64,000 bases of DNA from NCBI GenBank assembly GCA_048886685.1, contig JBHLKM010000019.1:20107-84106 (forward strand). Reading direction: 5' to 3'. The position numbers were made by a program, and so were the translations under genes. The notes under the pieces are model-generated. The model was not told the DNA's origin. It saw only the letters and a program-made list of their open reading frames with translations, and did not search any database. The DNA is from Candidatus Hodarchaeota archaeon (lineage in GTDB: Archaea > Asgardarchaeota > Lokiarchaeia > Sigyniarchaeales > SOKP01). Below, piece after piece: positions 5,500-24,850 of the stretch; the stretch's first letter is position 1; every line of letters begins with the position of its first letter.

Positions 5500-5582
5500 T
5501 TTAATAGATACAAAATCGGAGCCAGATGACCTTATATGAACCATTTATGGTTATAGAGCAATTTGAAAAGAATAAAACATTA

Positions 5583-6146
5583 TCAGCTGAATCTCGACGT
5601 TAATTGTTTTCCAATTCCTTTTGCTTTTTGTACCAATGTATTTTGATTATAGATAGCACCAATCCTACGGAGTCCAGGCGCAATCATTAAATCTTTAACA
5701 TTATAGCCTAAAAGATTAAATAATCTCGAAGCATTGTCAATATATTTTTTAAATAGATCGATATTAGGATTACCATGAGTAAAAACTAACACCAAATCCT
5801 TTTTTCCAATTTTGCTTTTAAATCCCGCACTTATTTGGGAAAAATGACGATCAACGAATATTTTTAATTGAGCAGACATTTGCCCAAAATATATAGGAGA
5901 CCCAATTATCACTGCATCTGATTGTTTAATTTCTTCAAATAGATGTGGCATATCATCCTTTAGTGCACAATCTTCATCATTAATTTTACAATGATAACAA
6001 CTTTGACATCCCTTTATATCCATTTCATTTAAATTAAATATTTCAGTCTCTGCACCATTCTCTGCGCCACTTTCTAGAATTATCTCCACTAATTTTTGAG
6101 TATTTCCCTCAACTCTAGGACTACCTACAATACCAATGATTTTCAT
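5583..6146 (-). CDS. Iron-sulfur flavoprotein (Isf)/flavodoxin-like FMN reductase
   Basis: GSPR..GNT FMN loop, compact CQSCYHC.....C motif, SPIYFG..SAQLK..DR. Confidence 0.85.
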   Translation of the reverse strand: MKIIGIVGSPRVEGNTQKLVEIILESGAENGAETEIFNLNEMDIKGCQSCYHCKINDEDCALKDDMPHLFEEIKQSDAVIIGSPIYFGQMSAQLKIFVDRHFSQISAGFKSKIGKKDLVLVFTHGNPNIDLFKKYIDNASRLFNLLGYNVKDLMIAPGLRRIGAIYNQNTLVQKAKGIGKQLTSRFS

Positions 6147-6286
6147 TTGATTTATACACCTTACATTCGAAGTTAAGATATTTTAATTTGAAATTCTAAA
6201 ATTTACTTTTTCTGAGTGAACTAATTAGATATTACTTTATGTAATTTGATAAAAATTTATAATTTTTTTTATTTCTTCTTTAATTA

Positions 6287-6315
6287 TAAATTCCGAGTCT
6301 GATTTCAATGAAAAT
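6287..6315 (+). repeat. Dispersed intergenic motif, copy 2 (partial, 29 bp)
   Basis: taaattccgagtctgatttcaatgaaaat. Confidence 0.7.
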
Positions 6316-6491
6316 GTTAAGATATGAAAATTTATTCTAATAAGAATTTTTGTAATACATTTCTATAATGAGTGCAATACCAAATTAGAGGAGAACTGTA
6401 ATTCTTGACATAATTAAATAAAGAAATTATTGGATCTTCATAAATAATGGTCTACTATTTTTTTATAATACAATTTTCTTTAAATTCTAAT

Positions 6492-7490: not shown

Positions 7491-7724
7491 ATGACCTCAA
7501 AAAATATTAGTATCACTGAAGAAGTCTATAAAAAACTTATTAAAATTAAAAAAGACAATGAAAGCTTTTCAGAATTATTCTTGAGACTGCTTAAGATCCA
7601 AAAAGTTAAAATGGAAAATTGTTTTGGGGCATGGAATCTTTCAGAAGAAGAAAAAAGAGATATTTGGGATGATATTACAAATCGAACTGGTCGAGATTGG
7701 AAAAAGACCAATTTGGTGAAGTAA
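7491..7724 (+). CDS. vapB: VapB-family antitoxin (archaeal DUF217 type)
   Basis: MTSKNISITEEVYKKLIKIK..NESFSE..LRL...FGAW pattern; directly followed by a PIN-type start. Confidence 0.8.
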   Translation: MTSKNISITEEVYKKLIKIKKDNESFSELFLRLLKIQKVKMENCFGAWNLSEEEKRDIWDDITNRTGRDWKKTNLVK

Positions 7725-7725
7725 A

Positions 7726-7785
7726 ATGATTATACTCGACACTAATGCATGTTTCCATTCCAAATTTCACAGAAAATTGAGATAA
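7726..7785 (+). pseudogene. vapC: Truncated VapC/PIN toxin (first strand only)
   Basis: MIILDTNAC begins 1 nt after the antitoxin stop, with a GGTGA RBS; stops after 19 codons. Confidence 0.75.
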
Positions 7786-7788
7786 AAT

Positions 7789-9594
7789 TTAAAAAATCTC
7801 ATCGATCACTGTTTTTAGCACGGGGGGTTTATCGAGCTCTAACATCTCACTGGTTTTGACTGAATTATTGAGTGCTTGCCAGATTTCTGGATTCTCTCTT
7901 ATCGCTTCAGAAAAGCGCGATAACTTCTGCAACGCGGGATAGGACTGCCCCTTAATCACATAACATGCCAAAAACGGTTCAACTGGATTGATCAAAATTG
8001 TATTTTCTCCAACTCGTATACGATCAATCGATTTTGAAAAGATCTCATCCATGAACGTATTAAAAGCGGACATAAATGAACTAAAGAGATCACTGTAATC
8101 CCAGTTGGCTATAAAAGGATGATTGAAATAGGTTACACCGCTACTGTCCATAATAAGAAGCAGGATGGGTTCTTCATTTTCTAACTCGGAAGTTTCAATT
8201 ACCCCCCTTCCCTTCAAACGTTCAAGTACACCCTCAATAGATGCCAACTTCAGGCGTTCTGCCACTGATGCTTGAGTTTTCTTAAAAGATTCCCAGAGGC
8301 TTAACTCTTCCAATAACTTATCATGTTCTCTCGAGATATCATTAGCCAGTAGTTGGAGATCATGCTCACCTGCTATTCTTTGTGCTTCAGCTAACAATCT
8401 TCTCGCTTCCACCAAATTTATTTGAAGTAGAGCTAATTTCGCCCGGAAGAGCTTTACATTCGCTAATAAATAATAGGAGTTTATACTTATCGCATTTCTG
8501 TGTAAATGATCTATAAGCGGATGTATATCATCTAATATTTCTATCTGATTGGTTAACTGAAATTCTTGGAAATATATGTCACATAAATGAATTAATGCTT
8601 CAGAATTAAGACCCCCCCCTTCTTCTATAAGATTTTTTAAAATATTTTCTGCTTCAGTACGATCACGCATTCTACTACTTGATTTCAATATTAGAGCATT
8701 AGTTAACCGATAAAAATAATTTATACTAGCATTAGACTCATATTTTTCCTTGAGAAGTTTAAATTCGTGGAAATAGCGCTGCACTTCCTCATTTTCTTTT
8801 TTGATAAGAAAAATACGTATAATTACATAGTATGTTGCCGCCAAAAAATATCCTTCTTCAAATTTTTTATAGATTTCAAGACTATTTATATGATATTCTA
8901 ACGCATGATCCATATCTCCTTTAAAGTAATATATTCCTCCCATAAGACGGTAAAACTCTGCTTTCTCAAAAAGAGGGCCTTGATAATTTAACTTAGAAAT
9001 TAAAGATATGGCTTTTTCACCACATGCTAATGCGAGATTTAATTCTCCTTTGAATAAATAGACCCAACCCTTTAATCCCTGCACGAAAGGGAGTAAAAAT
9101 GAAAGTGGATCATTTTTTTCATAATAAGTTATACAATTATCAGCATATTCTAAGCTTCGGTCAAGTTTTTTAAGGAAAAAGTTTCCTACAGCATAAATAC
9201 AACCCATTTCTGCTTCTATTTGAGGATAAGTTGATAAATCTAGCTGACGAATTGATTTAAAAAGGCTAACAATCAGTTCATAATTCTTGCCATATTCAAT
9301 ACTGCCCATTGTCGCAAAAACCAGTGCTTTGACAAAAAGCGCATCAAAGGAAAAGATAGCCTTACTAAATTCTTGACTAGTTTGGTAGAGGATTTCAGCG
9401 GTCTGAAGTGCTAATTCGAATTTTCCGAGCAAAAAGAAGAGATAACTTTTAATCCCTTGAATATTTAATCTCTCATCAAGCGTTAAAGCTTCCTTTTGTT
9501 CTAAATCATTTAAATATTCAAGAGCTTTTTCAAATTCTCCATTATCAATTAACGTTTTTGCTTTAGTTATTTTCTCAGAAGGTATTACAATCAT
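7789..9594 (-). CDS. Tetratricopeptide-repeat protein with C-terminal longin-like domain
   Basis: TPR helices (G.IYYFKGDMDHALEY); C-terminal EEPILLLIMDSSG...YVIKGQSY domain shared with 24973..26928. Confidence 0.8.
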   Translation of the reverse strand: MIVIPSEKITKAKTLIDNGEFEKALEYLNDLEQKEALTLDERLNIQGIKSYLFFLLGKFELALQTAEILYQTSQEFSKAIFSFDALFVKALVFATMGSIEYGKNYELIVSLFKSIRQLDLSTYPQIEAEMGCIYAVGNFFLKKLDRSLEYADNCITYYEKNDPLSFLLPFVQGLKGWVYLFKGELNLALACGEKAISLISKLNYQGPLFEKAEFYRLMGGIYYFKGDMDHALEYHINSLEIYKKFEEGYFLAATYYVIIRIFLIKKENEEVQRYFHEFKLLKEKYESNASINYFYRLTNALILKSSSRMRDRTEAENILKNLIEEGGGLNSEALIHLCDIYFQEFQLTNQIEILDDIHPLIDHLHRNAISINSYYLLANVKLFRAKLALLQINLVEARRLLAEAQRIAGEHDLQLLANDISREHDKLLEELSLWESFKKTQASVAERLKLASIEGVLERLKGRGVIETSELENEEPILLLIMDSSGVTYFNHPFIANWDYSDLFSSFMSAFNTFMDEIFSKSIDRIRVGENTILINPVEPFLACYVIKGQSYPALQKLSRFSEAIRENPEIWQALNNSVKTSEMLELDKPPVLKTVIDEIF

Positions 9595-9707
9595 TAGGGA
9601 GATTTTTCATTTTCATTGAATTTAAAAAAATGGAAGTACCTTTTCCTTTTAAGCCTTTTGTATTATAGTCTCGATTTAGAATTTTATTATTTCGTTTTTT
9701 CAAAGTA

Positions 9708-9742
9708 ATTTTCAATGAAATCAGACTCTGAATTTACCTTTC
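9708..9742 (-). repeat. Dispersed 35 bp intergenic motif, copy 3
   Basis: Reverse complement is gaaaggtaaattcagagtctgatttcattgaaaat; 4 mismatches to copy 1. Confidence 0.75.
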
Positions 9743-9807
9743 AGGAGATTTTCCATTTAAATATAAATAACAAGATAAACATTCAAACTTTTATTTGCCC
9801 ATTTAAA

Positions 9808-9909
9808 TCATGGGATGATTATAGTTGGATCTTCCTTAATTCGGTCTAAAACGAGTTGGGTTTTGACTTCTTCTACTTCGGGAAGATTTCGAAGGTTTTC
9901 GATAAGATC
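9808..9909 (-). pseudogene. Displaced duplicate of the last 33 codons plus stop of the lrp gene (direct repeat of 14247-14348)
   Basis: Encodes DLIENLRNLPEVEEVKTQLVLDRIKEDPTIIIP*, identical to the Lrp C-terminus; 13 nucleotide differences, all synonymous. Confidence 0.92.
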
Positions 9910-10026
9910 CAAAATCTTGTTCTGATCAATTGTCAAATTAAAATGAAATGGTTTTTTATTCAGTGATAATAATTGAGTGATCTCATTAGAATTATTAAAT
10001 TATTATTATCAATTGCTAATTCCTAA

Positions 10027-10503
10027 TTAGGTAGGTTTTCTTTTCCAAATTTTTATCGATTCATATATAAACACTGAAGTACAAAAAATTATAAAAAATA
10101 GAAAAAGCAAGCTCGCAGGATTGGTAATAAATGTGTCACCATAAATCCATGCAAGAAATATATATCCTAAAACACCCAGAATATTAACAACTAAGTATAA
10201 AGAATACCGGGGTATCATAAAAGGTCCGAAACGAAAATAAAACCCTAATACACCCTTTTTTATACCTTCTTTCACGTAATATTTACCATCTTCGTCGTTT
10301 TTTGAAATAATCCCTGCTTTCATTAATTTATCTAATTGATAGGCTACCGTTCCAGAAGACACCATTTTTAATGCCTTTTGAATTTCCCGTACTCCCGCCT
10401 GATGATGAGTCAAAATGTACCAATAGATTTGGAGAGTCCTACCCTGCAATACTTTTTTTTTATTATCCTTTATCTTTTGTGCTTTTACATCAAGATCTGT
10501 CAT
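10027..10503 (-). CDS. Membrane-anchored winged-helix transcriptional regulator
   Basis: TLQIYWYIL...GVREIQKAL...SSGTVAYQLDKL..AGII wHTH followed by two hydrophobic helices. Start could be 10590. Confidence 0.8.
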   Translation of the reverse strand: MTDLDVKAQKIKDNKKKVLQGRTLQIYWYILTHHQAGVREIQKALKMVSSGTVAYQLDKLMKAGIISKNDEDGKYYVKEGIKKGVLGFYFRFGPFMIPRYSLYLVVNILGVLGYIFLAWIYGDTFITNPASLLFLFFIIFCTSVFIYESIKIWKRKPT

Positions 10504-10586
10504 TGCAAGTAAGGTATCATTTTTTGATTTCGATGATATAAATGTTATTCCTTTCCCTTCATTTTTAAACTTTCTTCTTACTGATT

Positions 10587-12236
10587 TCATAAGAACTCTA
10601 AGTCCTCTTGAGGTTTTCTAAACCTTTTATGATTTTTATATATTACAAAAACAGCAACTCCGATTATTGTGATAGAAATAATGAGAATAATTGGAAAGTA
10701 ATTTAATGATGGCGTAAGTGTACAAACATTATCTTGAATTACATTTCCTTGGCAATTCACTTCTATGATGCATTCCTGATTTCCTATTAATCTGTTTCCC
10801 GAAACGGTGTTATTATCACTTTCATATAATAATATCCCATATCTGTTGTAATTTGCGGTGTTTCCCGAAATGGTGTTATTATTACTCCCAGCTAAAATTA
10901 TCCCGTTTTCATTGAAATTTGCGGTGTTTCCCGAAATGGTGTTATTATTACTTGAAGAATTTATAAATATCCCAATTAGATTCCTATAAATTAGATTGTT
11001 TGAAACATTGTTATAGTTATCATTATATTTGAGAATAATTCCTTCAGCAAAATTATTATGTAGCTCGTTCCAAGTGATAATGTTATGATCTGAAAACTCG
11101 TATAAAACTATTCCTGAAAAGCATTCAAAGACATGGTTGTTTGAGACGTTGTTGTAATGGGCGGAATGAAATCCAATCCCTGTCCAACGTTCCCTAAAAA
11201 CTAGATTGCCTGATACCTCGTTATTGTTGGCTCCATCCCATAAGACAATTCCTCCTTCATTGTGATGAGCTATATTTTTAAGAATCGTGTTTTTATTCGA
11301 AAATCTGAGAGTTATTCCCAAGTTATTACTTGATATCGTGTTTTCCGAAATTGTATTATTATCACTTAGCGATAACCTTATCCCATCCCAGATATTGTTG
11401 CATGCTATGTTTCCCGAAATGGTGTTATTATCACTACCTGTTAAATATATCCCATTCCCGTTGTAATTTGTGGTGTTATTCAATAGGGTGTTATCATTGC
11501 AAATATCTTCTAAATATAGCCCGTACTGAACATTATTGTTGCATGTGTTTCCCGAAACGGTATTGTTAATACTATGATAATATAAATTTATCCCACGAAG
11601 GTTGTTATTTGCGATGTTTCCCGAAACTATGTTATAACTACTTGGAGATAAACATACCCCCTCCTCATTGTAATTTATTGTGTTTCCCAAAATGTTGTTA
11701 TAATTACTATCTTCTAAAACCATCCCATGATAAATGTTATTACTAGCGATATTTCCCGAGATGGTTATATAATTACTATATTTTAAAAAAATCCCTGCCC
11801 AATCGTTATTTGAAACATCATTATTGATTAAGGATCCATTACTAACTGATTGCAGCTTAATGCCAGCATCCCAATCATAATTAATATTATTATAAACTGT
11901 ACAATTCTCAATCTTAAAATGCACATCAGAATTTTCAATCAAAATGCCACTCCCCAAACCTCCGACATCTATTATCAAATCTTCTATAACATATGGATCG
12001 GAGTAAGTGCCATTCCCCGTACAATTTCCCGCACTTCTAAAAGCAGCCCATCCAGAATTATTGATGATATGAATTTTTCCCGATACTGCTGAGATTTTTA
12101 GATTTTCGTTATCTAAATTAATTACATCGCTGTTGCCCGTAATCAAATTTGGATTAACGGTAATCATTGGTGCTAAAGCGAAAAGGATTCCTATGGTGAT
12201 TAAAATTATTATTTTTGATTTTGCATTTAATTTCAT
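10587..12236 (-). CDS. NosD/CASH right-handed beta-helix surface protein with signal peptide and C-terminal TM anchor
   Basis: Many GI.L..S.NNTISGN repeats; GNGT.SDPY.I motif; GGTGA RBS supports the start at 12236. Confidence 0.88.
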   Translation of the reverse strand: MKLNAKSKIIILITIGILFALAPMITVNPNLITGNSDVINLDNENLKISAVSGKIHIINNSGWAAFRSAGNCTGNGTYSDPYVIEDLIIDVGGLGSGILIENSDVHFKIENCTVYNNINYDWDAGIKLQSVSNGSLINNDVSNNDWAGIFLKYSNYITISGNIASNNIYHGMVLEDSNYNNILGNTINYNEEGVCLSPSSYNIVSGNIANNNLRGINLYYHSINNTVSGNTCNNNVQYGLYLEDICNDNTLLNNTTNYNGNGIYLTGSDNNTISGNIACNNIWDGIRLSLSDNNTISENTISSNNLGITLRFSNKNTILKNIAHHNEGGIVLWDGANNNEVSGNLVFRERWTGIGFHSAHYNNVSNNHVFECFSGIVLYEFSDHNIITWNELHNNFAEGIILKYNDNYNNVSNNLIYRNLIGIFINSSSNNNTISGNTANFNENGIILAGSNNNTISGNTANYNRYGILLYESDNNTVSGNRLIGNQECIIEVNCQGNVIQDNVCTLTPSLNYFPIILIISITIIGVAVFVIYKNHKRFRKPQEDLEFL

Positions 12237-14720: not shown

Positions 14721-14974
14721 TCTATAATACCTAACAAATATAATTTCTATTTTTTGTTCTTATTATAAATAATAAATTGCAAATTTATAATTTTTTATAC
14801 TAATCTTTTTGATTTATATAGTGATATTTGCTAAATAAACCTGTAGTTTATAGCTTAAAAAACTATGATTTAAATACTAGATAATATTTTTATTCTACAA
14901 TGAATGTCATCTATAGTAAAAAGTGACATTAGTAACAAAAAAAAAAATAAAAAAAACTAAAAAGGTTGAAAAAA

Positions 14975-15205
14975 ATGGCTGAATTAACATTAACATTTGA
15001 TTTTACAGGATTGAGATGTCCTATGCCGGTTTTAAAGACGAAAAAGGAATTAAAGAACTTAAATCCTGGTGATGTTATTGAGGTTATTGCTGATGACGTT
15101 GGAGCGAAAAAAGACATTCCAGCTATGTTAAATAAGACTGGGAATGAATTAATTGAACTCAGAGAAGACAACGGGAATTTAATTTTTGTAATCAAGAAGG
15201 CTTAA
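14975..15205 (+). CDS. tusA: TusA/SirA sulfur-carrier protein
   Basis: D.TGLRCPMPVL motif, V.ADD.GA..DIP. Confidence 0.92.
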   Translation: MAELTLTFDFTGLRCPMPVLKTKKELKNLNPGDVIEVIADDVGAKKDIPAMLNKTGNELIELREDNGNLIFVIKKA

Positions 15206-15234
15206 AGCATATAAATAGGAGTTTATTGAGCAGT

Positions 15235-15603
15235 ATGTCGAAATATGTTTTCTTTATTAGCACTGAACCATACAAGTACCAGGCTGTCGATTCATTAATA
15301 GAAATTGGTAAAGCAGCACTAAGAAAGGGGCATGAAATCATGGGTATATTTTTCTTTGGCACAGGAGTATATAATCTTAAAAAGGATATTAGCTGCGGAT
15401 CGTCTATTCGCAACATCCCAGAAAAGATTGAGAAATTTAGCAAGGAAAATAATATTCCAGTAGCAGGTTGTAGTACTTGGGTGAGTATAACAGGATTAAA
15501 AGAACCAGAATTCATTGAGGGAGCAACTGAAGAGGGATTAGGAGATTTTTCTAACTGGGCAATTGAAGCTGATAAATTATTAGTATTTGGAACAGGAGGG
15601 TAA
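15235..15603 (+). CDS. DsrE/TusD family sulfurtransferase
   Basis: EPY, AAL.KGH.I.GIFFFGTGV, active-site-position Cys (AGCST), GLG.F. Confidence 0.82.
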   Translation: MSKYVFFISTEPYKYQAVDSLIEIGKAALRKGHEIMGIFFFGTGVYNLKKDISCGSSIRNIPEKIEKFSKENNIPVAGCSTWVSITGLKEPEFIEGATEEGLGDFSNWAIEADKLLVFGTGG

Positions 15604-15607
15604 AATT

Positions 15608-15976
15608 ATGATAAATTCAGTAGTAGTAATAAGTGATCAATCACCTATAGGGAGAAATTCGGCAATCGAGGCAATTAGAATAGGCTCAGGATTTACTGCC
15701 CTTGGAGAGTATATTGACTGTAAAGTTGTATTGACTGGTGATGCGGTGTATTTATTTAATAAGTTTTGTAATCCTGAAGCAGTTGGGATGGATCCATTGA
15801 CCGAAGTATTAGAAATGGCTGATTTATCTGATTTAGAAGTGTATATTATTGAATCTGCATTAACCGAGGCCGGATTATCAAAAGACGACCTAATTGAATA
15901 TGAAAACCTGAAATTCATCGATTATGATGGTTTAACAGAATTAATAGCAGAAGCAGATACAACATTTAGATTTTAG
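15608..15976 (+). CDS. DsrF/TusC family protein
   Basis: SP.G...A.EA, V.LTGDAVY, SAL.E.GL, and C-terminal AD...RF. Confidence 0.78.
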   Translation: MINSVVVISDQSPIGRNSAIEAIRIGSGFTALGEYIDCKVVLTGDAVYLFNKFCNPEAVGMDPLTEVLEMADLSDLEVYIIESALTEAGLSKDDLIEYENLKFIDYDGLTELIAEADTTFRF

Positions 15977-15991
15977 AGGAGATGAATAAAA

Positions 15992-16333
15992 ATGCCAGAA
16001 AATCTTGAATTAGTATATTTGTTTGGATTTAGCGAGTTAACAGGTAGTCATTTGAGAAGATTACTCCCTATTTTAAAAAGTCAAATCAAAAAGAATACAA
16101 AACTTGGATTAGTCTTGATTCACGATGGAGTTATAGGCATAACAACGAAGGGAAAAATACCAAAAAAAATTGAAGAACTCCTTAGTTTAGACGTGAAGGT
16201 ATTTGCTATGAAGCCGGATATAATAGCACGCGGAATTGCGCAGGAGTACATTAACGATAAAATTAAAGCTATAGAATATGATGATCTTATAGATATAATT
16301 GATGCTACACCAAAAATTATATCATGGATGTAA
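15992..16333 (+). CDS. DsrH/TusB family protein
   Basis: LVLIHDGV, VFAM..D..ARGI, I.YDDL.D, ISW motifs. Confidence 0.82.
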   Translation: MPENLELVYLFGFSELTGSHLRRLLPILKSQIKKNTKLGLVLIHDGVIGITTKGKIPKKIEELLSLDVKVFAMKPDIIARGIAQEYINDKIKAIEYDDLIDIIDATPKIISWM

Positions 16334-16443
16334 TTAGAATCATAAAAATTAAAAAGTAAAAGATTTTTAAAAAAGTCTGGGTAAGACCAGGAAAATAATA
16401 AACAAAAAATAAAGGAAATTTCCTAAAAAAATAAAATAAGAAG

Positions 16444-16875
16444 GTGGTATATGTGGCAGAAAACGGAACAATAAATTTTATTGTAAAGGATAAATCATTC
16501 GAGAAATTCGCAATGATGATGATCCTTGGCACAACGGGAGACGCTATGGATATTAAAATGAATTTTTTCTTTACCTTTTGGGGTTTAGAACTTTTGAAAA
16601 AGGGTAAAAAACCAAAAGTTGCAGGCATGCCTTTTCCAATGAAAGGTATGGCAGCAAAGATGTTTACCAAAAGGTTGAAGAAGTTTGGAATTGAAGATCC
16701 ATGGGGTTTGATAAAAGAGGCTATTGATAATGGAAATATGAAGTTATATCCATGTGAAATGACCATGCAATTGATGGGAATTAAACATAAGGATATAATC
16801 GAGATTGCTGAAGAACCTGTTGGTGCTGCTACATTCTTAGAAATGAGTGATGGTGGAAGAATAGTTAGTTTATAA
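16444..16875 (+). CDS. DsrE2 (DrsE_2)-type sulfurtransferase
   Basis: FFFTFWGL, YPCEMTMQLMGI, VGAATFL. Confidence 0.85.
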   Translation: MVYVAENGTINFIVKDKSFEKFAMMMILGTTGDAMDIKMNFFFTFWGLELLKKGKKPKVAGMPFPMKGMAAKMFTKRLKKFGIEDPWGLIKEAIDNGNMKLYPCEMTMQLMGIKHKDIIEIAEEPVGAATFLEMSDGGRIVSL

Positions 16876-16927: not shown

Positions 16928-17479
16928 ACGTCTGATGTAGAGGAACAAGCAAGGGAATATAAAACAGACGAAGATTTTGATAATGAATTTTTTAAAAATA
17001 TTGAAAGAAGGTCTAATATTTGGCAGTGCATCCAATGTGGAACTTGTACAGCAAGTTGCGAAAGTGGTAGATGGACTGCCCTAAAAACTCGATCTATAAT
17101 TAGAAAAGTTGTTTTAGGAGATTTATCAGTATTAAAAAATCCAGATATCTGGCTCTGTACTACATGTTATCAATGTTATGAACGATGTCCTCGTGATGTG
17201 AGACCTACAGATGTTATTATGGAGTTGCGTAATTATGCGACTAAATTAGGAAATATTTCTCCTAATCATCGAGCTGTTGTAGGTTATCTGAAAAATTTTG
17301 GACACGCAGTTCCAATAAATGATGAAGTAAAACAACGAAGAGTTAAATTAGGATTAGAAGAACTACCGCCTACTGCGTTTAAATTCAAGCAGGAGGGGGA
17401 TGATAAAGATTTAAAAAATATCGAAGAAAAAATGTTTGATTTACCTCCAGTTAAGGAGGAAAAAGAGGAAGAGGCGTAA
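16928..17479 (+). CDS. hdrC: Heterodisulfide reductase subunit C (183 aa; apparent ACG start)
   Basis: The frame of the 17198 ORF is open upstream and contains CIQCGTCTASC and IWLCTTCYQCYERCPR; AGGTGA RBS 7 nt before ACG. Confidence 0.88.
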   Translation, partial: TSDVEEQAREYKTDEDFDNEFFKNIERRSNIWQCIQCGTCTASCESGRWTALKTRSIIRKVVLGDLSVLKNPDIWLCTTCYQCYERCPRDVRPTDVIMELRNYATKLGNISPNHRAVVGYLKNFGHAVPINDEVKQRRVKLGLEELPPTAFKFKQEGDDKDLKNIEEKMFDLPPVKEEKEEEA

Positions 17480-17482
17480 AAA

Positions 17483-18400
17483 ATGTTAAAGGAAAATACA
17501 TTTGCTTTCTTTTTAGGATGTTTGATGCCAAATCGATATCCTGCAATTGAAAAATCAACGAAATTTGTTATGGAAAAATTAGGTTATGAACTCTTAGATA
17601 TGGAGAGAGCAACCTGTTGTCCAGCTCCAGGAGTATTTCGATCATTTAATAAGATTGATTGGATGGTTCTCGCTGCAAGAAACCTATGTATCGCAGAACA
17701 ATTGGATGCTGATATTCTAACAGTATGTAATGGTTGTTTTGGTACGCTTCAAGAAGTTAATAAACATTTGAAAGAAAATGAAGAGCATAGAAATATGGTT
17801 AATGAGAGATTGAAAGAAATTGGAGATTATGAATTTCAGGGAACTATTGATGTAAGACACGTTGCGGAAGTATTAGGATATGAAGTTGGGCCATGGGGAA
17901 TTGAAGATGTAATAGTAAGAAAAGTCAATGCACGAGTAGCAATTCATTATGGTTGTCATTTCTTAAAACCAACAAGAATAAGAGAAATTGAAAGCTCTGA
18001 GGGACCTACTATTATAGAAGAATTCGTAGAAGTATTAGGGATAGAATCCGTGAGATTTAAAGAACAGCTAACTTGCTGTGGTGCTGGCGGTGGAGTAAAA
18101 GCCTATGATGGAACAGCAAGTATGACTATTTTCGGTGAAAAAATGAAGAATATTGATGAGGTTAAACCTGATTTTATACTTGATATCTGTCCATTTTGTC
18201 ATTTACAATACGAGACAGGTCAAGATTATCTAAATAAAAATAAGAATTGTAATTATGATTATCCAGTAATTCACATCTCCCAACTTGTTGCCTATTGTAT
18301 GGGGATGGACCAAGAATTTATTGGTCTTCAGTATCAATTAATGGGCAGAGATTTTATTTTTGGGGGAGAAAAATTAGAAAAAGAGGAGGAGGTCGTTTAA
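17483..18400 (+). CDS. hdrB: Heterodisulfide reductase subunit B
   Basis: FLGC.MPNRYP, TCCPAPG, CNGC, HYGCH, CCGAGGG, CPFCHLQ (two CCG domains). Confidence 0.95.
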   Translation: MLKENTFAFFLGCLMPNRYPAIEKSTKFVMEKLGYELLDMERATCCPAPGVFRSFNKIDWMVLAARNLCIAEQLDADILTVCNGCFGTLQEVNKHLKENEEHRNMVNERLKEIGDYEFQGTIDVRHVAEVLGYEVGPWGIEDVIVRKVNARVAIHYGCHFLKPTRIREIESSEGPTIIEEFVEVLGIESVRFKEQLTCCGAGGGVKAYDGTASMTIFGEKMKNIDEVKPDFILDICPFCHLQYETGQDYLNKNKNCNYDYPVIHISQLVAYCMGMDQEFIGLQYQLMGRDFIFGGEKLEKEEEVV

Positions 18401-18401
18401 C

Positions 18402-20432
18402 TTGACTATAAAAGAAGAAAAAGTTAAAGAGACTGAACAATTAGGGGAAAAGGTTGAAACCGAAGAAAGCGAAGAGCCACGAATAGGTGTATTCGTGTGT
18501 CATTGTGGACATAATATTGCCGGAACTGTGGACGTTGCTAAAGTTGCGGAATATGCATCAACATTACCAAACGTAGTAAAAGCAGAGCATTATATGTTTA
18601 TGTGTTCCAAACCAGGAGTTCAAATGGTTAAAGATTCTATTGAAGAACTTGGAGTTAATAGAACTGTTGTTGCTTCATGCTCTAAAAATCAACATGGGAA
18701 AACTTTTGCGAGAGCAATTGAAGAAGTTGGATTGAACAAACATCGTCATCAACAGGTTAATGTGAGAGAGTACGATAGTTGGGTTCATCAAAAAGAAAAA
18801 GAGAAAGCAACTCAAAAGGCTATGAGACTTGTTGAAGCAGGAGTGAATCGATCAAGGAAATTGGAAGATGTCGAAACGAGGAGAATTCCAACGACTAAGG
18901 CGGCATTAGTTATCGGTGCAGGGATAGCTGGTTTGCGATCTGCCTACGATATGGCAGAATTAGGAATCCCAGTAGTTCTAGTAGAAAAAGAATCTACAAT
19001 AGGAGGTCATATGACACGTTTAAACAAAACATTCCCAACTTTAGAATGTCCACAGTGTTCCATCTCTCCACTTACAAATGGAGTTGCGAATCACCCACTA
19101 ATAGAGCTTTATACAAATGCTCAAATTAAAAGCGTTGAAGGTTCTTTAGGTAATTTCGAGGTTGAAATCGAGATAAAGCCTCGCTATGTGAAAGATAATT
19201 GTACTTCTTGCGGTGAATGTGCGGCACACTGCCCCGTAGAAGTACCAAGTGAATGGGATATGGAAATGTCGATGAGAAATGCGATTTACAAAGCTTATCC
19301 TCAGGCAATCCCCGCAACATATGTAAGAGATAAAAAGAATTGTATTGAGTGTAATACTTGTATTAATATTTGTCCTGTTCAAGCAGTTGATTTCTCTATG
19401 CAATCAGAGACTAAGACTGTAAAGGTTGGCTCAATAATCGTTGCGGCGGGATATGATGAGTATGATCCTACCGAAATTGAACCTTATCATTATGGACAAG
19501 AGGGTTTTGAAGATGTAATAACTCAGCTGAAACTAGAGAGAATGTTATCTCCAACTTCACTTACAAATAGTCAAGTACTTAGACCATCAGATGGTAAAAT
19601 TCCTAAAAGCGTTGTTATGATCCAATGTGTAGGAAGTAGAAACGACCAAGTTGGAAATAAATATTGTACGGGAGTATGCTGTAAGGTCGCTATTAAAAAT
19701 GCTAGAATCATAAAAGAAATGTATCCTCATACTGATGTATCAATATGTTATATTGATATAAGGACTCCAGGATTAAACTTTGAAGAATTGTATAAATCTG
19801 CTCAAGAAATTGGAGTTAGATTTATCCGTGGTAGACCATCAGAAATTGTAAAAAACCCAATATCAGGAGAGTTAAAAGTAATTGTTGAAGATACATTAAG
19901 TCAAACACCATTACAATTAAAAGCTGATTTAGTTGTACTTTCTGCTGCTATGGTTCCTCCTGAGGGAATTGGTCCACTTGGTTCTAAACTTCATGTACTA
20001 AGATCAAAAGAAGGATTCTTAAAAGAATTTCATATAAAAATGAATCCTACTCTAAGTAGTAAAGGAGGAATTTTCTTAGCTGGGGCTATACAAGGACCCA
20101 AAGACATTTCTGAAACTGTAGCTCATGCTGGAAATGCTGCCGCATTAGCAGCTGCTCCTTTAGTGAAAGGCTACATTGAAAAAGAGATGTTGGTTCCTTC
20201 AATAGATTATGATTTATGCGTTAACTGCGGTTTATGTAAAACTATCTGTGCTCCAGCTGCAATTGACATCGATGAGAATGGAATTCCTGCTATAAATGAG
20301 ATTGCTTGTAAGTCCTGTGGTATGTGTATGCCTGTATGTCCTACAGGAGCAATTCAATTAATAAATTTTAGTGATGATCAATTATTAGATGAAATAATCG
20401 CCGTATCTGGCGGAGGTGCTGTTTGCGAATGA
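18402..20432 (+). CDS. hdrA: Heterodisulfide reductase subunit A (Cys form)
   Basis: RIGVFVCHCG.NIAG, IGAGIAG, KTFPTLEC..C, IQCVGSR...YC...CC, inserted and C-terminal ferredoxin domains. Confidence 0.95.
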   Translation: MTIKEEKVKETEQLGEKVETEESEEPRIGVFVCHCGHNIAGTVDVAKVAEYASTLPNVVKAEHYMFMCSKPGVQMVKDSIEELGVNRTVVASCSKNQHGKTFARAIEEVGLNKHRHQQVNVREYDSWVHQKEKEKATQKAMRLVEAGVNRSRKLEDVETRRIPTTKAALVIGAGIAGLRSAYDMAELGIPVVLVEKESTIGGHMTRLNKTFPTLECPQCSISPLTNGVANHPLIELYTNAQIKSVEGSLGNFEVEIEIKPRYVKDNCTSCGECAAHCPVEVPSEWDMEMSMRNAIYKAYPQAIPATYVRDKKNCIECNTCINICPVQAVDFSMQSETKTVKVGSIIVAAGYDEYDPTEIEPYHYGQEGFEDVITQLKLERMLSPTSLTNSQVLRPSDGKIPKSVVMIQCVGSRNDQVGNKYCTGVCCKVAIKNARIIKEMYPHTDVSICYIDIRTPGLNFEELYKSAQEIGVRFIRGRPSEIVKNPISGELKVIVEDTLSQTPLQLKADLVVLSAAMVPPEGIGPLGSKLHVLRSKEGFLKEFHIKMNPTLSSKGGIFLAGAIQGPKDISETVAHAGNAAALAAAPLVKGYIEKEMLVPSIDYDLCVNCGLCKTICAPAAIDIDENGIPAINEIACKSCGMCMPVCPTGAIQLINFSDDQLLDEIIAVSGGGAVCE

Positions 20433-20881
20433 GCGAATGTGAAACTATTGATGAAGCTATTCAGGAGAAAATTCAAAATGTAGTAGTTTTTATGTGTAAT
20501 GAATGTGGTCAAGGTTCTGCTAACACTGCGGGAGTAGCTCGAATGGGTTATGATCCTGCTATAAGAATCATAAGAGTTCAATGTACAGGTCAAGTTGGAC
20601 CTATTCAAATAATGGATGCATTAAATAATGGTGCTGATGCAGTTGCGTGTGTTGGATGCTGCTTAGGAGCTTGTCATTTTTTCAATGGAAACATCTTATC
20701 GATGCATAGAATAAAACTGATGAAAAAGTTATTTAAGGAATTAGGTTATAGTGATCAATTTGTTAATCAATATACTTCTAGGGCTGCTGAAGGTGAAACT
20801 GCTGTAGGAGATTTTGAAGATATATTAGAAAGGTTATCAACAGCAATTAAAGAGGAGGGTACGATTAAAGATGGATGTTAA
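20429..20881 (+). CDS. mvhD: MvhD/FlpD-type [2Fe-2S] adaptor subunit
   Basis: F.CNEC....A..AG, IRVQCTG, GADAV...GC..G.CHF..GN; ATGA overlap with hdrA. Confidence 0.88.
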   Translation: MSECETIDEAIQEKIQNVVVFMCNECGQGSANTAGVARMGYDPAIRIIRVQCTGQVGPIQIMDALNNGADAVACVGCCLGACHFFNGNILSMHRIKLMKKLFKELGYSDQFVNQYTSRAAEGETAVGDFEDILERLSTAIKEEGTIKDGC

Positions 20882-22106
20882 AGTTTTTCAATTCAATGGT
20901 TGTAATAAATGTTTTAACGAATCATTATTGCTAAAATTAAGTTCAGATTTAAATGTTGAATACATTAAAGACCCTAAGACATGGAAAGAAGAAAAAATAG
21001 AAACAGCGGTTATAACAGGATATCTACTCCCAACTGATAGAGAAATGATCAATAAGATAAGATCTAATGCAAAGAAAGTTATAGCTTATGGTAGCTGTCC
21101 TGTTAGTGGTGGAGTTTATGCATTAGCAAACCAAAATGGATATGAAATAACTCCTTTGAAAGACTTGGGTGATAATGTAATTGAAATTGAAGGTTGTTTA
21201 GGCGAAATTGATGAGCTGAAATCAGTTATTAAAAATCTAGAGTTAACTAAACCTAGAAAATTATGTGATTTATGTACTCGTAGAGCTACATGTGATTACT
21301 TAGATAAAGTGAATCGTCAAATCGAGTTTAATGATGAGGACACTTGTTTTAATGACTTAGGTTTTCTTTGTAGCGGATTTGTTGCTCGAGAATGTAAAGA
21401 ACGCTGTATTGACTACAATACACCGTGTAGGGGATGTAAACAATTAGTTGAAAGGTCGGGAATCCGTATGCTTGGTATGTTTGGAACACTCATGGGAAAC
21501 ATTGAAGTTGCCACAGAACACTCAGTTAAAGGAGCAACAGATAAATTAGCTGATGAAGAGGATGATGTAACGAGAAGTTTACCAGATATTCTAGGAAATT
21601 TCTTCAGATTTACATTGACTACTTCAGGACTACCTAAAGGAAGAATTCCATCTTCTGGTACTTTATTAGAGGATTTATTTACTGGAAGATTAATTGAAGA
21701 ATTACCATTAATTACAGGGCTCTTAGGAGGAGATAAATCAATTTCACTTACCTTGAAAATAATTGAATCATATGAAAAAGCTAATCAAATTGAAATTAGC
21801 GAGCAAACTAGGAAATATCGAGAACAATTGCTAACTTTAGAAGAAAAATTACATGAAGCAATAGAAAAAGAAGATGCAGAACAATATAAAGAAATCACTG
21901 GAGAAATCCGTCAAATAGCTGGAAATATGAATTTGTCAAATGTGTTCTTTGGTGGATTCAAATCAAAAATAAATGATGATGATAATTTTGAAGATTATAA
22001 ACCCCACATTTTTGAAGTGGTTGAAGGAACTTATAAAAACGGTTCTGTAGAATATAGCATAGATTCAGATGGAATAATTAAAGAAATTAAAATAAGAGAG
22101 GGATAA
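20871..22106 (+). CDS. MvhG-like Fe-S subunit fused to a degenerate hydrogenase large-subunit relic
   Basis: GCNKC..S, AYGSC...GG, GC, LCDLC, CF...G.LC.G, C...C....PCRGC. The Cys-free C-terminal ~150 aa resembles MvhA segments. Confidence 0.75.
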   Translation: MDVKVFQFNGCNKCFNESLLLKLSSDLNVEYIKDPKTWKEEKIETAVITGYLLPTDREMINKIRSNAKKVIAYGSCPVSGGVYALANQNGYEITPLKDLGDNVIEIEGCLGEIDELKSVIKNLELTKPRKLCDLCTRRATCDYLDKVNRQIEFNDEDTCFNDLGFLCSGFVARECKERCIDYNTPCRGCKQLVERSGIRMLGMFGTLMGNIEVATEHSVKGATDKLADEEDDVTRSLPDILGNFFRFTLTTSGLPKGRIPSSGTLLEDLFTGRLIEELPLITGLLGGDKSISLTLKIIESYEKANQIEISEQTRKYREQLLTLEEKLHEAIEKEDAEQYKEITGEIRQIAGNMNLSNVFFGGFKSKINDDDNFEDYKPHIFEVVEGTYKNGSVEYSIDSDGIIKEIKIREG

Positions 22107-22108
22107 AC

Positions 22109-24580
22109 ATGAGTTTTGAATTACTAAAAAATGAAATTATCGATGCGGGTTTGTGTCAAGGATGTGGATTATGTGCTGGTTCATGTAAGCACATAGAAAT
22201 GGATATACTACGCCCAACATTAAAAGATTATTGTATTCTTGAAAGAGATGGAAAAGATTGTGGTAAATGCTATCAAGGTTGTCCACAAGTTATTCAGAAA
22301 AAATTCGAGCAAAGGCAACCAAAAGTGGTTTATTCATTAAGAAGTAAAAATCCAGAAATACTCGCAAAAGCGGCTAGTGGTGGAGTAGTCACAACAATAG
22401 CTAAGGAATTATTAGAAAAGGGAGAACTTGCCGAAATTGTGATGGTTCAAGACGTTGAAGAAAAACCTCAAGCTGAGATAGTTTCTGATCCAGATGAAGT
22501 TGTACAAAAAGCAGGTGTCGTTTATGGACGCTCAGGAGTCTTACAAAAGTTAGTAGATGTTGTTGGGGAAACTTTCGAACCGGTAGGAATTGTAGGTGTC
22601 CCATGTGAAATACGAGGTGCAGCTGAACTGGAAGAAGAAATGAATAGGGATATTCTGAAAATTGGATTATTTTGCAATTCCCATATGCGAACCGAGCAAA
22701 CTGATAAAGGATTGGTGTGTTCACCTTGTTGTAGTGGCTGTCCGTCAGGAGTAAATGCCCAAGGATATATTTCCTTAATAAGACAAGGAGAATACCGAGA
22801 AGCAGTAGATTTAATCCGAGAAAATAATCCACTTCCTTCTATATGCGGAAGGATTTGCACGAATGAATGTGAGCATGGATGTACTTTGATAGGAGATGAT
22901 CATCCCGTAGCAATCCGGGAATTAAAAAAGTTTGTTACCGAATGGGAAATTGAACAATCTAAGAAGATTGAGCCTAAATCTAAGATTAAATCAAAAAAGA
23001 ATGCAAAAAAGGTTGCAATTATTGGATCTGGACCCGCTGGATTAACAGCAGGATATTTTTTGAAGAGAATGGGATATGCACCAACTATATTCGAAAAGTC
23101 AGATCAGACAGGAGGCATGCTAAGATTCGGAGTGCCACAATTTAGATTACCTAATTATGTATTAGATTATGACGTAAATATGATTAAAAACTCTGGCGTT
23201 GAAATCATTCTTAATAAACCTTTAGGACCAGAAATGACTATTGATGACTTAAAAAATGATGGATTTGAAGCGATTTTCATAGCTACTGGTCAATATAAAC
23301 CTCGAACATTACATCTAGAAGGAGAAGATCTACCAAACGTACACGTGGCTATTACATTTCTTATGGATCGCAAGTATAGGTACTGGGAAAATAAAGAAGA
23401 ATTCAAGGGAAAAACAGTAGGAATAATTGGTGGAGGCCCAGTTGCAGTAGATGTTGCTCAAACTGCTCTCAGATTAGGCGCTGAAAAAATTCATCTTGTT
23501 GATATCATGTCTGAAGAACAACTTGAGTTAGTATTAAAAGAGATTCCTGAAAATGAATTTGAATTTATGGAGTATCACTTTACAACATCAACTTCAAAGA
23601 TTACTCAGAGCGAAGATGGTAAATTAGTGCTAAACAGTTATAAAGTTGAATGGTGGACTTCTGATGAAACAGGGAGAAAAGCAATGAATAAAGTTAAAGG
23701 GTCCGATTATGAAATTCCAATTGATTCCATTGTAATTGCGGTAGGTCAAGCTGTGGATTTTGATCAAATTGATATAGCTACAGATAATAAATTAGAAAAA
23801 GAGCGAAATAAAATCAAAGTGAATGAGGTTACTTTCGAAACAAGTATTCCAGGAGTATTTGCTGGGGGAGATATTATTAACAACTCGAAAGCCGTGGCAA
23901 TCGCGGCAATTGCACATGGAAAAGAAGCTGCAATCTCAATTGATAGGTATCTTAAAGGTGAGAGTTTAATAGAAGGTAGATATAAGCAAGATAAGATGTT
24001 TTTTAAAGGTCCTAAGAAACCGCCAAAAGATTATTCACCAAAACCAGAAACTTTAGAAGATGCTACTGAAGAAATCGCATGGAGTTTTGAAGAAATCGAT
24101 CAAATGTTTGATGAAGAGATGGCAATACAAGAAGCACGTAGGTGTTTGAGCTGTAATCATTTCTGCTCACATTGTCAAGATTTTCCTGCTATTTATTCTG
24201 ATTTAACAGCAGGAGAAGTAGGATCCCAGGAAGGATTTACAACTTTGGTAGTATGGACTGATAAAGGTAAAGAAATCATAGAGAAAGCAATTAAAAATGG
24301 ATTATTTGAAGAAGGAGAAGTAAACAAGGAAGAATTAAATAACGCGATAAATCTTAAATCTAAGCGAGAGCTTTTAACGTTTGAAAAAACTCCAAGACAA
24401 CGAGTATTAGATTACATTACGCTTCAAGGACCAACTACAATTAGTGATATGGCTAAAAAGTTAAATCTAGACTCTAAAAAAATACGATATGAAGCCCTTC
24501 GATTAACCCAATTAATGCAAGTTGAGATGAAGGTTGATCCAGGAATGCAAGAACCAATTTTTACTTTAATTTGTGAATAA
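22109..24580 (+). CDS. FrhB-type F420-binding subunit with inserted GltD/NfnB-like NAD(P)H flavoprotein and C-terminal wHTH
   Basis: CQGCGLC...C, ASGGVVT, VGVPCE, IGLFC; then CP......YI/NPLPSICGRIC, IGSGPAG, IGGG.VA.D, GVFAGGD, EARRCLSC; then CSHCQDF...SD...G.VGS.EGFTT. Confidence 0.88.
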   Translation: MSFELLKNEIIDAGLCQGCGLCAGSCKHIEMDILRPTLKDYCILERDGKDCGKCYQGCPQVIQKKFEQRQPKVVYSLRSKNPEILAKAASGGVVTTIAKELLEKGELAEIVMVQDVEEKPQAEIVSDPDEVVQKAGVVYGRSGVLQKLVDVVGETFEPVGIVGVPCEIRGAAELEEEMNRDILKIGLFCNSHMRTEQTDKGLVCSPCCSGCPSGVNAQGYISLIRQGEYREAVDLIRENNPLPSICGRICTNECEHGCTLIGDDHPVAIRELKKFVTEWEIEQSKKIEPKSKIKSKKNAKKVAIIGSGPAGLTAGYFLKRMGYAPTIFEKSDQTGGMLRFGVPQFRLPNYVLDYDVNMIKNSGVEIILNKPLGPEMTIDDLKNDGFEAIFIATGQYKPRTLHLEGEDLPNVHVAITFLMDRKYRYWENKEEFKGKTVGIIGGGPVAVDVAQTALRLGAEKIHLVDIMSEEQLELVLKEIPENEFEFMEYHFTTSTSKITQSEDGKLVLNSYKVEWWTSDETGRKAMNKVKGSDYEIPIDSIVIAVGQAVDFDQIDIATDNKLEKERNKIKVNEVTFETSIPGVFAGGDIINNSKAVAIAAIAHGKEAAISIDRYLKGESLIEGRYKQDKMFFKGPKKPPKDYSPKPETLEDATEEIAWSFEEIDQMFDEEMAIQEARRCLSCNHFCSHCQDFPAIYSDLTAGEVGSQEGFTTLVVWTDKGKEIIEKAIKNGLFEEGEVNKEELNNAINLKSKRELLTFEKTPRQRVLDYITLQGPTTISDMAKKLNLDSKKIRYEALRLTQLMQVEMKVDPGMQEPIFTLICE

Positions 24581-24613: not shown

Positions 24614-24850
24614 ATGAAATGCGATATGGAATTAAATGTTTGTGGCTCTGTATGCCCCGTACCAGCTTTAAAGACGAAAAAGCAACTTATGAAAATGAGA
24701 CCTGGCACAGTGTTAAAGGTAATAACAGACTACAAACCAGCAAGCGAATCTGTTCCACGCGATTTAGCTAAAACCAAGCATAGACATTTAGGAACAGAGT
24801 TCATAGAAGATGATGAGCAGTGGTATATCTATTTTGAAGCAGTGAAATAA
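24614..24850 (+). CDS. tusA: Second TusA/SirA sulfur-carrier protein
   Basis: L.VCGSVCPVPAL, L.VITDY.PA.ESVP. Confidence 0.88.
   Translation: MKCDMELNVCGSVCPVPALKTKKQLMKMRPGTVLKVITDYKPASESVPRDLAKTKHRHLGTEFIEDDEQWYIYFEAVK

Follow-up and report, generated by a model that had tools for sequence, protein, structure and literature searches.

Can an Asgard-archaeal operon that encodes a hydrogenase small subunit beside heterodisulfide reductase genes be read as evidence of H2 metabolism? The question arises from one gene in a 64,000-nucleotide stretch (the window, which is the whole stretch of DNA analysed) of contig JBHLKM010000019.1 from a Candidatus Hodarchaeota archaeon (GCA_048886685.1). The original prediction proposed that this gene fuses an MvhG-type small subunit to a shrunken, nickel-ligand-free relic of the [NiFe]-hydrogenase large subunit, and that the product acts as a structural electron wire between MvhD and the FrhB/GltD subunit. 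The observation is confirmed and the interpretation of the tail is supported by the analyses described below, whereas the electron-wire role is an inference.

The fusion gene and its iron-sulfur half

The gene is exactly one ORF (Table 1). The N-terminal part is a complete MvhG-type small subunit that aligns to solved MvhG/VhuG chains (9sw2_E and 5odc_E) up to their C-termini and ends at the motif DILGNFFRFTL (residues 239-249). Its flavodoxin-like N-domain reaches 43.8 bits against the Oxidored_q6 model (PF01058; cut-off 27), with C11, C14, C76 and C109 for the proximal cluster invariant; the GCPP motif reads GCLG in the Loki clade but is GCPP in divergent members. The C-terminal part, with Cys for the medial and distal clusters, aligns to 9sw2_E 137-300 and 5odc_E 146-295 and carries the nine further Cys. 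All 13 Cys are invariant among 40 close homologues and mostly invariant in a more divergent set. By sequence, this part is MvhG-like rather than FrhG-like (E 4e-16 against 0.17). The last Cys is residue 189, so the tail is Cys-free.

Table 1. Features of the fusion gene and its operon (positions are those of the window).
Position	Strand	Feature	Basis
14966..16875	+	TusA / DsrE-family sulfur-carrier genes upstream of hdrC; a second TusA lies at 24614-24850	Pfam TusA, DsrE, DrsE_2
17198..18400	+	HdrC (only the C-terminal part is in the listed ORF) and HdrB (two CCG domains)	NCBIfam CoB_CoM_SS_C; Pfam CCG
18402..20432	+	HdrA (FAD plus Fe-S bifurcating subunit)	Pfam
20423..20881	+	MvhD ([2Fe-2S] connector), overlapping the start of the fusion gene by 11 nt	Pfam FlpD 1.7e-31
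20871..22106	+	Whole ORF (411 aa plus stop): MvhG fused to a mini large subunit	366 homologues of about 411 aa
20871..21635	+	Residues 1-255: complete MvhG-type [NiFe] small subunit with 13 conserved Cys (11, 14, 76, 109, 132, 135, 141, 159, 167, 175, 179, 186, 189)	Pfam Oxidored_q6; alignment to 9sw2_E and 5odc_E
21657..22103	+	Residues 263-411: nickel-free miniature core of the [NiFe] large subunit (predicted helical bundle plus C-terminal beta sheet), without Cys	AlphaFold2 model; Foldseek; VIA-align; hhalign
21717..21737	+	Residues 283-289, GLLGGDK: place of the large-subunit nickel motif R-I-C-G-x-C, with both Cys replaced (G286, K289)	hhalign; column counts in 42 sequences
22109..24580	+	FrhB-type flavoprotein with a GltD/NfnB-like NAD(P)H module inserted; presumed electron-input subunit	Pfam FrhB_FdhB_N at 74-145, Fer4_20 plus Pyr_redox_2 at 191-604, FrhB_FdhB_C at 668-740

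Relationship of the tail to the [NiFe] large subunit

Searches at the HMMER level do not connect the tail to large subunits. Pfam, NCBIfam and PDB-sequence searches gave only chance-level hits (e.g., NusG_myco, geminin and designed proteins), which were rejected as noise, and no PF00374 (NiFeSe_Hases) hit was obtained even at E <= 1 to 10 for this protein and for 9 divergent relatives. A profile search of 1.8 billion representatives found the tail only in MvhG fusions or fragments of them, with no genuine large subunit and no longer intermediate. The original prediction had noted three segments in MvhA order, and these were examined by profile-profile comparison. The segment LEDLFTGRLIEELPLITGLLGG...KYREQL lies in a region (266-324) that aligns to residues 39-97 of Loki MvhA, around the RICGxC nickel motif, with hhalign probability 90-93% and P = 1.6e-6 to 3.2e-7 (87-93% and P 3e-7 to 4e-6 when a further comparison is included). 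Column shuffles gave 13 +/- 2.1 (maximum 20.8) against the observed 47.9 (z about 16), and 0 of 100 came near. The C-terminal beta hairpin has its best local hit at the predicted place, MvhA 372-386 (P = 0.016, 0 of 100 shuffles); however, the reversed control scores as high, so this is only suggestive on its own. The remaining segment, IAGNMNLSNVFFGGF, lands on the GG..H....PGG motif only in the extended, low-confidence alignment. Only the first of the three segments is significant by itself.

The order of the segments is confirmed independently by structural alignment. A template-free AlphaFold2 model of the tail alone, built from a more diverse alignment, has pLDDT 91.4 and pTM 0.85. Almost all of its first 24 Foldseek hits are large subunits or NuoD, although the E-values are weak (0.06 and above). 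VIA-align against 48,161 chains placed [NiFe] large subunits or their complex-I homologues at ranks 1-15 (Z 9.6-13.3, with Z 11.9-13.3 to MvhA/FrhA and 145-160 residues aligned), and the next, unrelated hit scores 5.2. For MvhA (5odc_F), 145 residues align at rmsd 2.3 A; model residues 12-160 map on MvhA 38-398 and on FrhA 40-402. Thus, about two thirds of the subunit is gone. The retained domain of about 150 residues is the conserved core of the large subunit, comprising the helices around the former active site and the C-terminal beta hairpin, and lacks the N-terminal strands, about 200 internal residues and the C-terminal DPCxxC segment; the tail ends at the equivalent of MvhA residue about 398 of 447. 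In the first nickel motif, 42 sequences show position 286 as G/Y/A/F and position 289 as K/N/R/H/S/Y, never C. The domain therefore cannot bind the NiFe centre, and the protein is not a hydrogenase. A full-length AlphaFold2 model built with 40 close homologues was poor (pLDDT 48) and was not used.

Conservation and operon context

The fusion is not unique to this assembly. It is present in 366 homologues and 63 species-level genomes, including two cultured Asgards (MK-D1 and L. ossiferum). The dN/dS of the tail is 0.07-0.21, the same range as the MvhG part, which indicates purifying selection, and mean column identity is 82% in the tail and 81% over the whole protein. A pseudogene or assembly artefact was rejected on conservation, dN/dS and synteny, and an alternative genetic code or frameshift was rejected because the ORF is uninterrupted and has the same length in hundreds of sequences.

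The gene lies in the order hdrCBA-mvhD-[fusion]-frhB. MvhD is immediately upstream in 64 of 64 testable loci, with HdrA also upstream in 64, and FrhB is directly downstream in 60 of 60 testable loci, of which 55 carry the GltD insert. The same operon occurs in MK-D1 and in divergent members that have a plain FrhB, and DsrE/TusA genes also flank two divergent operons (L004 and L005). No true large subunit is present in the window or in any of 65 related loci. Two genuine [NiFe] large subunits are encoded elsewhere in this genome, each with its own small-subunit gene directly upstream. The 434-aa small subunit beside one of them has no such tail; its extra length is a duplicated Fe-S region and it ends at the MvhG end motif. 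The F420 biosynthesis genes CofH, CofE and CofD are present above their cut-offs.

Possible role and comparison with known complexes

The gene order mvhD-mvhG-(relic of mvhA) fits fusion of neighbouring mvhG and mvhA genes followed by deletions, mvhD-G-A being the established order in methanogens. The explanation favoured here, held with reasonable though not full confidence, is that the protein is the Fe-S wire and adaptor of a hydrogen-independent Hdr complex, most likely driven by F420H2 or NAD(P)H. In this inferred scheme, electrons enter at the FrhB flavoprotein from F420H2, and in Lokiarchaeia also from NAD(P)H through the inserted GltD module, pass the three [4Fe-4S] clusters of the MvhG part and the [2Fe-2S] of MvhD, and reach the bifurcating FAD of HdrA. 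From there they would go to ferredoxin and to HdrBC, whose thiol/disulfide substrate is probably tied to the TusA/DsrE carriers encoded alongside, and the flow could also run in reverse. The electron-wire role agrees with the invariant Fe-S ligands and the conserved gene order. The mini large subunit is inferred to be kept because it covers the proximal cluster and stabilises the small-subunit fold, and it may also offer the docking face for a partner.

An unrelated helical domain that resembles the large subunit by chance or convergence appears very unlikely. The absence of HMMER-level hits, the middling Z-scores that helical bundles often give and the weakness of two segments by sequence would allow it, but the 15 top structural hits all belong to one family, are separated from generic bundles by a gap from Z 9.6 to 5.2 and include the beta part. 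Furthermore, an independent profile hit lands on exactly the nickel-motif helix, and the domain sits where mvhA would follow mvhG. Pairing in trans with a genuine large subunit is equally improbable. The genome has two such subunits and many MvhD/Hdr paralogues, but each large subunit has its own small subunit, the fused relic is expected to occupy the large-subunit binding face, and the single true large subunit of MK-D1 is 3 Mb away in its own cluster with its own small subunit.

Two further possibilities concern the role of the relic. It might be a new docking site through which FrhB, or another partner, feeds electrons into the proximal cluster at the place of the lost NiFe centre. The core next to the small subunit was kept and is highly conserved while two thirds of the large subunit were removed, and MvhD and FrhB are both encoded next to it; in Mvh and Frh these two appear to dock near the distal cluster, which argues for a second entry point. 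However, no model or contact data exist for this reading, and it is considered unlikely. A new ligand-binding or regulatory role, such as sensing a metabolite or binding TusA/DsrE at the former active-site pocket, is more doubtful still. Polar residues with no obvious structural role are strongly conserved (e.g., R273, E276, E277, N352, S356 and N357) and TusA/DsrE genes are conserved neighbours, but there is no Cys or His cluster and no match to a binding family.

Among known systems, MvhAGD-HdrABC (group 3c; e.g., 5ODC) shares the gene order next to hdrCBA and gives the best match to the MvhG part, and its MvhA superposes on the relic (Z 11.9). Here, however, the large subunit is reduced to about one third, fused to MvhG and without nickel ligands, an FrhB gene follows it, and H2 cannot be the substrate. 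The closest analogue is Elp-Hdr of Methanothermobacter marburgensis (PMC12350162), in which ElpA is a truncated FdhA without the molybdopterin domain, ElpB is an FdhB/FrhB-like flavoprotein that oxidises F420H2, and ElpC is MvhD, connecting to HdrA. The gene content at the present locus agrees with this arrangement, in that an FrhB/FdhB-type flavoprotein and MvhD are encoded with a cofactor-less relic next to HdrABC. However, the Elp relic derives from formate dehydrogenase and is a separate subunit, and Elp has no small-subunit-type wire. The F420-reducing hydrogenase FrhABG (3ZFS, 6QGR) shares the combination of small subunit and FrhB, and FrhA is the top structural match of the relic (Z 13.3), but Frh has a full catalytic FrhA and no MvhD/Hdr. 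Nickel-free homologues of the group 4 lineage (complex I NuoD/Nqo4, MBS MbsL, NDH NdhH), which also appear among the structural hits, have lost the NiFe cysteines and are kept next to a small-subunit homologue holding an Fe-S cluster; they are full-length, separate subunits of membrane complexes with a new quinone or sulfur site, whereas the present protein is soluble, group-3-derived, miniaturised and fused. In the HyhS::HydA hybrid hydrogenases of archaea (PMC11216029), a group 3 small subunit is likewise fused at its C-terminus to another domain, showing that the subunit is modular in Lokiarchaeia and other archaea, but the added domain is an active [FeFe] H-cluster domain and a true large subunit is encoded alongside.

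Nickel-free descendants of the large subunit are textbook for the group 4 lineage, but no description was found of a soluble, group-3-derived large subunit shrunk to its core and fused to its small subunit. The relic marks out the minimal part of the large subunit that a small subunit seems to need. It would also give a second, independent example of the logic of Elp-Hdr, in which the catalytic subunit is kept as a dead scaffold while an FrhB-type flavoprotein takes over the electron input. The concern in the original prediction that automatic annotation could count the gene as evidence of H2 metabolism is fair: JGI names these proteins 'coenzyme F420-reducing hydrogenase gamma subunit', although this genome also carries genuine large subunits. 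The tail has no Pfam family in the copy searched, and public names range from 'hypothetical' to 'F420-reducing hydrogenase gamma subunit'. A bolder and only tentative reading is that Asgard archaea converted an ancestral Mvh hydrogenase into a nickel-independent donor module, in which FrhB injects electrons from F420H2 or NAD(P)H into the proximal cluster and drives a bifurcating Hdr acting on a TusA/DsrE-bound sulfur substrate. If so, part of the 'MvhADG-HdrABC' inventory used to argue for H2 metabolism in Asgards, including MK-D1, refers to a complex that never touches H2. Metabolic reconstructions that count MvhG, MvhD and Hdr genes as evidence for H2 cycling in the archaeal relatives of eukaryotes may overcount.

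The operon and the MvhG-type domain

The sequence under study is a single ORF encoding a fusion of an MvhG-type small subunit with a C-terminal tail (MvhG*), and the observation that prompted the analysis is confirmed. The ORF lies in a tight co-oriented run of genes comprising tusA and dsrE-family genes, hdrC, hdrB, hdrA, mvhD, the fusion gene, a gene in which an FrhB flavoprotein is interrupted by a GltD/NfnB-like NAD(P)H module, and a second tusA. The listed hdrC ORF has a GTG start and covers only model positions 63-127 of 144 of the HdrC family, and its true start must therefore lie upstream, at a codon not used in the ORF listing.

Coordinates of the features in the window and in the loci compared with it
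Feature	Location	Coordinates	Strand	Size
tusA and dsrE-family genes	window	14966-16875	+	
hdrC (listed ORF)	window	17198-17479	+	93 aa
hdrB	window	17483-18400	+	
hdrA	window	18402-20432	+	
mvhD	window	20423-20881	+	
MvhG* fusion gene	window	20871-22106	+	411 aa
frhB with GltD/NfnB-like insert	window	22109-24580	+	823 aa
Second tusA	window	24614-24850	+	
tusA/dsrE-family genes	L004 (distant relative)	3438-4201		
tusA/dsrE-family genes	L005 (distant relative)	3334-4069 and 10399-10629		
Homologue with longer open frame	L040 (one MAG)	5071-6483		477 aa
Cluster of the genuine large subunit	L073 (MK-D1 chromosome 3723000-3741000)	ORFs 7652-11771	-	
MvhD/FlpD paralogues (examples)	this genome	C2:241180, C6:147627, C11:123522, C6:218704		

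The N-terminal 255 residues contain the small-subunit domain Oxidored_q6, as identified by Pfam. Against solved structures, the best matches are the MvhG/VhuG subunits of Hdr-associated hydrogenases (9sw2_E, E = 4e-16; 5odc_E). These are aligned up to residues 295-300 of chains of 299-308 residues, so the MvhG part is complete and ends at ...DILGNFFRFTL. All 13 Cys of the protein lie at or before residue 189. They are invariant in 40 close homologues, and most stay invariant in a set reaching down to 31% identity. The Fe-S wire therefore looks intact.

A predicted large-subunit core in the tail

Ordinary searches with the tail, including Pfam, NCBIfam, a profile search of PDB sequences and a profile search of 1.84 billion representative proteins, revealed nothing of its origin. 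The last of these found the tail in only 24 clusters, all of which were MvhG fusions of 403-421 aa or fragments of them. The more divergent members read GRP-x-EEA-xx-IA-x-R/T-I-Y/F-G, which is visibly closer to the large-subunit motif GR-xx-E-x-P-x-I-xx-RICGxC. A profile of the tail (in an initial and a later version) was compared with a profile of the genuine group 3c large subunits of Lokiarchaeia, seeded with the MvhA of this genome. Using hhalign, tail residues 266-324 were aligned to MvhA 39-97 with a probability of 87-93% and P = 3e-7 to 4e-6, and one hundred column shuffles of the tail segment scored 13.0 +/- 2.1 (maximum 20.8) against the observed 47.9. In this alignment, the two nickel cysteines of R-I-C-G-x-C fall on G286 and K289. 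Across 42 sequences these columns hold G/Y/A/F and K/N/R/H/S/Y, never Cys, and the glycine between them (G287) is invariant. The C-terminal hairpin finds its best local match at MvhA 372-386, the place proposed in the original prediction (P = 0.016), although a reversed control scores equally, so this match is only suggestive. The middle segment aligns to the GG..H....PGG motif only in a relaxed, low-confidence extension.

The predicted structure of the tail provides a second, independent line of evidence. With 42 tail sequences and no templates, AlphaFold2 gives a confident compact domain (pLDDT 91.4; pTM 0.85) with five helices followed by three beta strands. Foldseek against the PDB returned weak E-values (0.06 and above). 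Even so, the first 24 rows are almost exclusively [NiFe] large subunits (FrhA, MvhA, HyhL, HycE, HoxH, SHI alpha) and their complex-I homologues. A Foldseek-independent search of 48,161 chain representatives is clear-cut, in that ranks 1-15 all belong to that family with Z 9.6-13.3, and rank 16 is an unrelated helical protein at Z 5.2.

Structural alignment of the predicted tail model with two large subunits
Chain	Z	Residues aligned	rmsd	Model range	Chain range
FrhA 6qgt_A	13.3	148	2.3 A	12-160	40-402
MvhA 5odc_F	11.9	145	2.3 A	12-160	38-398

Thus, the tail spans the large subunit from just before the first nickel motif to just before the last one, and about two thirds of the chain in between is skipped. 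The N-terminal strands, a large internal block and the C-terminal segment that carries DPCxxC are missing. The three segments that the original prediction had listed as occurring in MvhA order are therefore in the right order and in the right places, and its interpretation of the tail as a large-subunit relic is supported by both the sequence profile and the predicted structure.

Conservation and genomic context

In a collection of 5.8 billion proteins, 366 match at E <= 0.001. The best 120 are all 405-413 aa apart from one fragment, are 69-92% identical, and come from Loki/Promethearchaeota and other Asgard MAGs. One of these 120 homologues (413 aa) carries a precomputed hit to Pfam PF28234. 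When one genome per species was considered, 63 loci carried the gene, including those of Promethearchaeum syntrophicum MK-D1, Ca. Lokiarchaeum ossiferum, Harpocratesius, Sigynarchaeum and a Thorarchaeote. In the MAG represented by L040, the open frame is 477 aa instead of about 412 aa (470 aa from the start that was picked automatically), which is either an N-terminal extension or an artefact of start-codon choice. The tail is as conserved as the MvhG part, with 82% against 81% mean column identity, and pairwise dN/dS for pairs with unsaturated dS is 0.07-0.21 in the tail and 0.07-0.35 in the MvhG part. This is a maintained domain, not decaying sequence.

Gene content around the fusion gene in 65 related loci
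Feature	Loci
MvhD directly upstream	64 of 64 testable
HdrA upstream	64 of 64 testable
FrhB-type gene directly downstream	60 of 60 testable
GltD insert in that FrhB gene	55 of 60
Genuine large subunit within the flanks	0 of 65

The GltD/NfnB-like insertion is absent in Harpocratesius, the Thor-like members and other divergent members, which have a plain FrhB of 345-389 aa, and it therefore looks like a later Lokiarchaeial addition. The conserved C-terminal part of these FrhB proteins looks like a winged-helix segment. TusA and DsrE-family sulfur-carrier genes flank the hdr-mvhD-mvhG*-frhB operon here and in two distant relatives (L004 and L005), which hints that the HdrB substrate is a protein-bound persulfide or disulfide. 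There are 15 MvhD/FlpD paralogues in this genome, 7 in MK-D1 and 5 in L. ossiferum, and several have two in-frame TGA codons, which are possible selenocysteines. In MK-D1 and L. ossiferum the MvhD next to MvhG* is the lowest-scoring (most divergent) paralogue, whereas in this genome it is the second lowest, above one weak 32-bit match.

This genome has two genuine large subunits on other contigs, each directly preceded by its own small-subunit gene. MK-D1 has a single genuine large subunit about 3 Mb away from its MvhG* operon, in a cluster reading small subunit (453 aa), HdrC-like ferredoxin, HdrB-like CCG protein and large subunit, and HdrBC-like genes therefore sit between the two hydrogenase genes. 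A similar long small subunit (434 aa) with a duplicated Fe-S region is found in this genome at L001, beside a genuine large subunit. In addition, the genome encodes CofH, CofE and CofD above their curated cut-offs, so F420 is available as a substrate for FrhB.

Inferred function and relation to known complexes

The protein cannot hold a NiFe centre, it keeps a full set of small-subunit cluster ligands, and in the testable loci it is always encoded between MvhD and FrhB, next to HdrABC. The role of the fusion as an electron wire is a well-motivated inference from the solved Mvh-Hdr, Frh and Elp-Hdr complexes and their probable docking geometry. In the most likely scheme, FrhB oxidises F420H2, and in Lokiarchaeia the inserted GltD module adds NAD(P)H. 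The MvhG clusters would then relay the electrons to the [2Fe-2S] cluster of MvhD and on to the bifurcating flavin of HdrA. HdrBC would reduce a disulfide or persulfide, probably linked to TusA/DsrE, while ferredoxin takes the low-potential electron, although the flow could also run in reverse. The full-length model was too poor to place the relic, and the sites at which the partners bind are not resolved. The mini large subunit would be the part needed to cover the proximal cluster and hold the small-subunit fold, and it may also be a new docking face.

The closest functional parallel is Elp-Hdr of Methanothermobacter, in which ElpA is a truncated FdhA without the molybdopterin domain, ElpB is FdhB/FrhB-like and ElpC is an MvhD homologue (PMC12350162). 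The Asgard module follows the same logic but starts from a hydrogenase, and the relic is fused to the wire subunit. Nickel-free large-subunit homologues are well known in the group 4 lineage (NuoD, MbsL and NdhH, which appear among the structural hits), and those are full-length, separate and membrane-associated, whereas the derivative described here is soluble, miniaturised and fused. Archaeal HyhS::HydA fusions show that the small subunit is modular (PMC11216029), but they carry an active [FeFe] domain. No description of the MvhG* fusion was found in full-text literature searches. Notably, the MK-D1 paper lists 'MvhADG-HdrABC' as the only hydrogenase of that organism and does not mention the composition of this operon (PMC7015854). 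The finding bears directly on how H2 metabolism is inferred in Asgard archaea.
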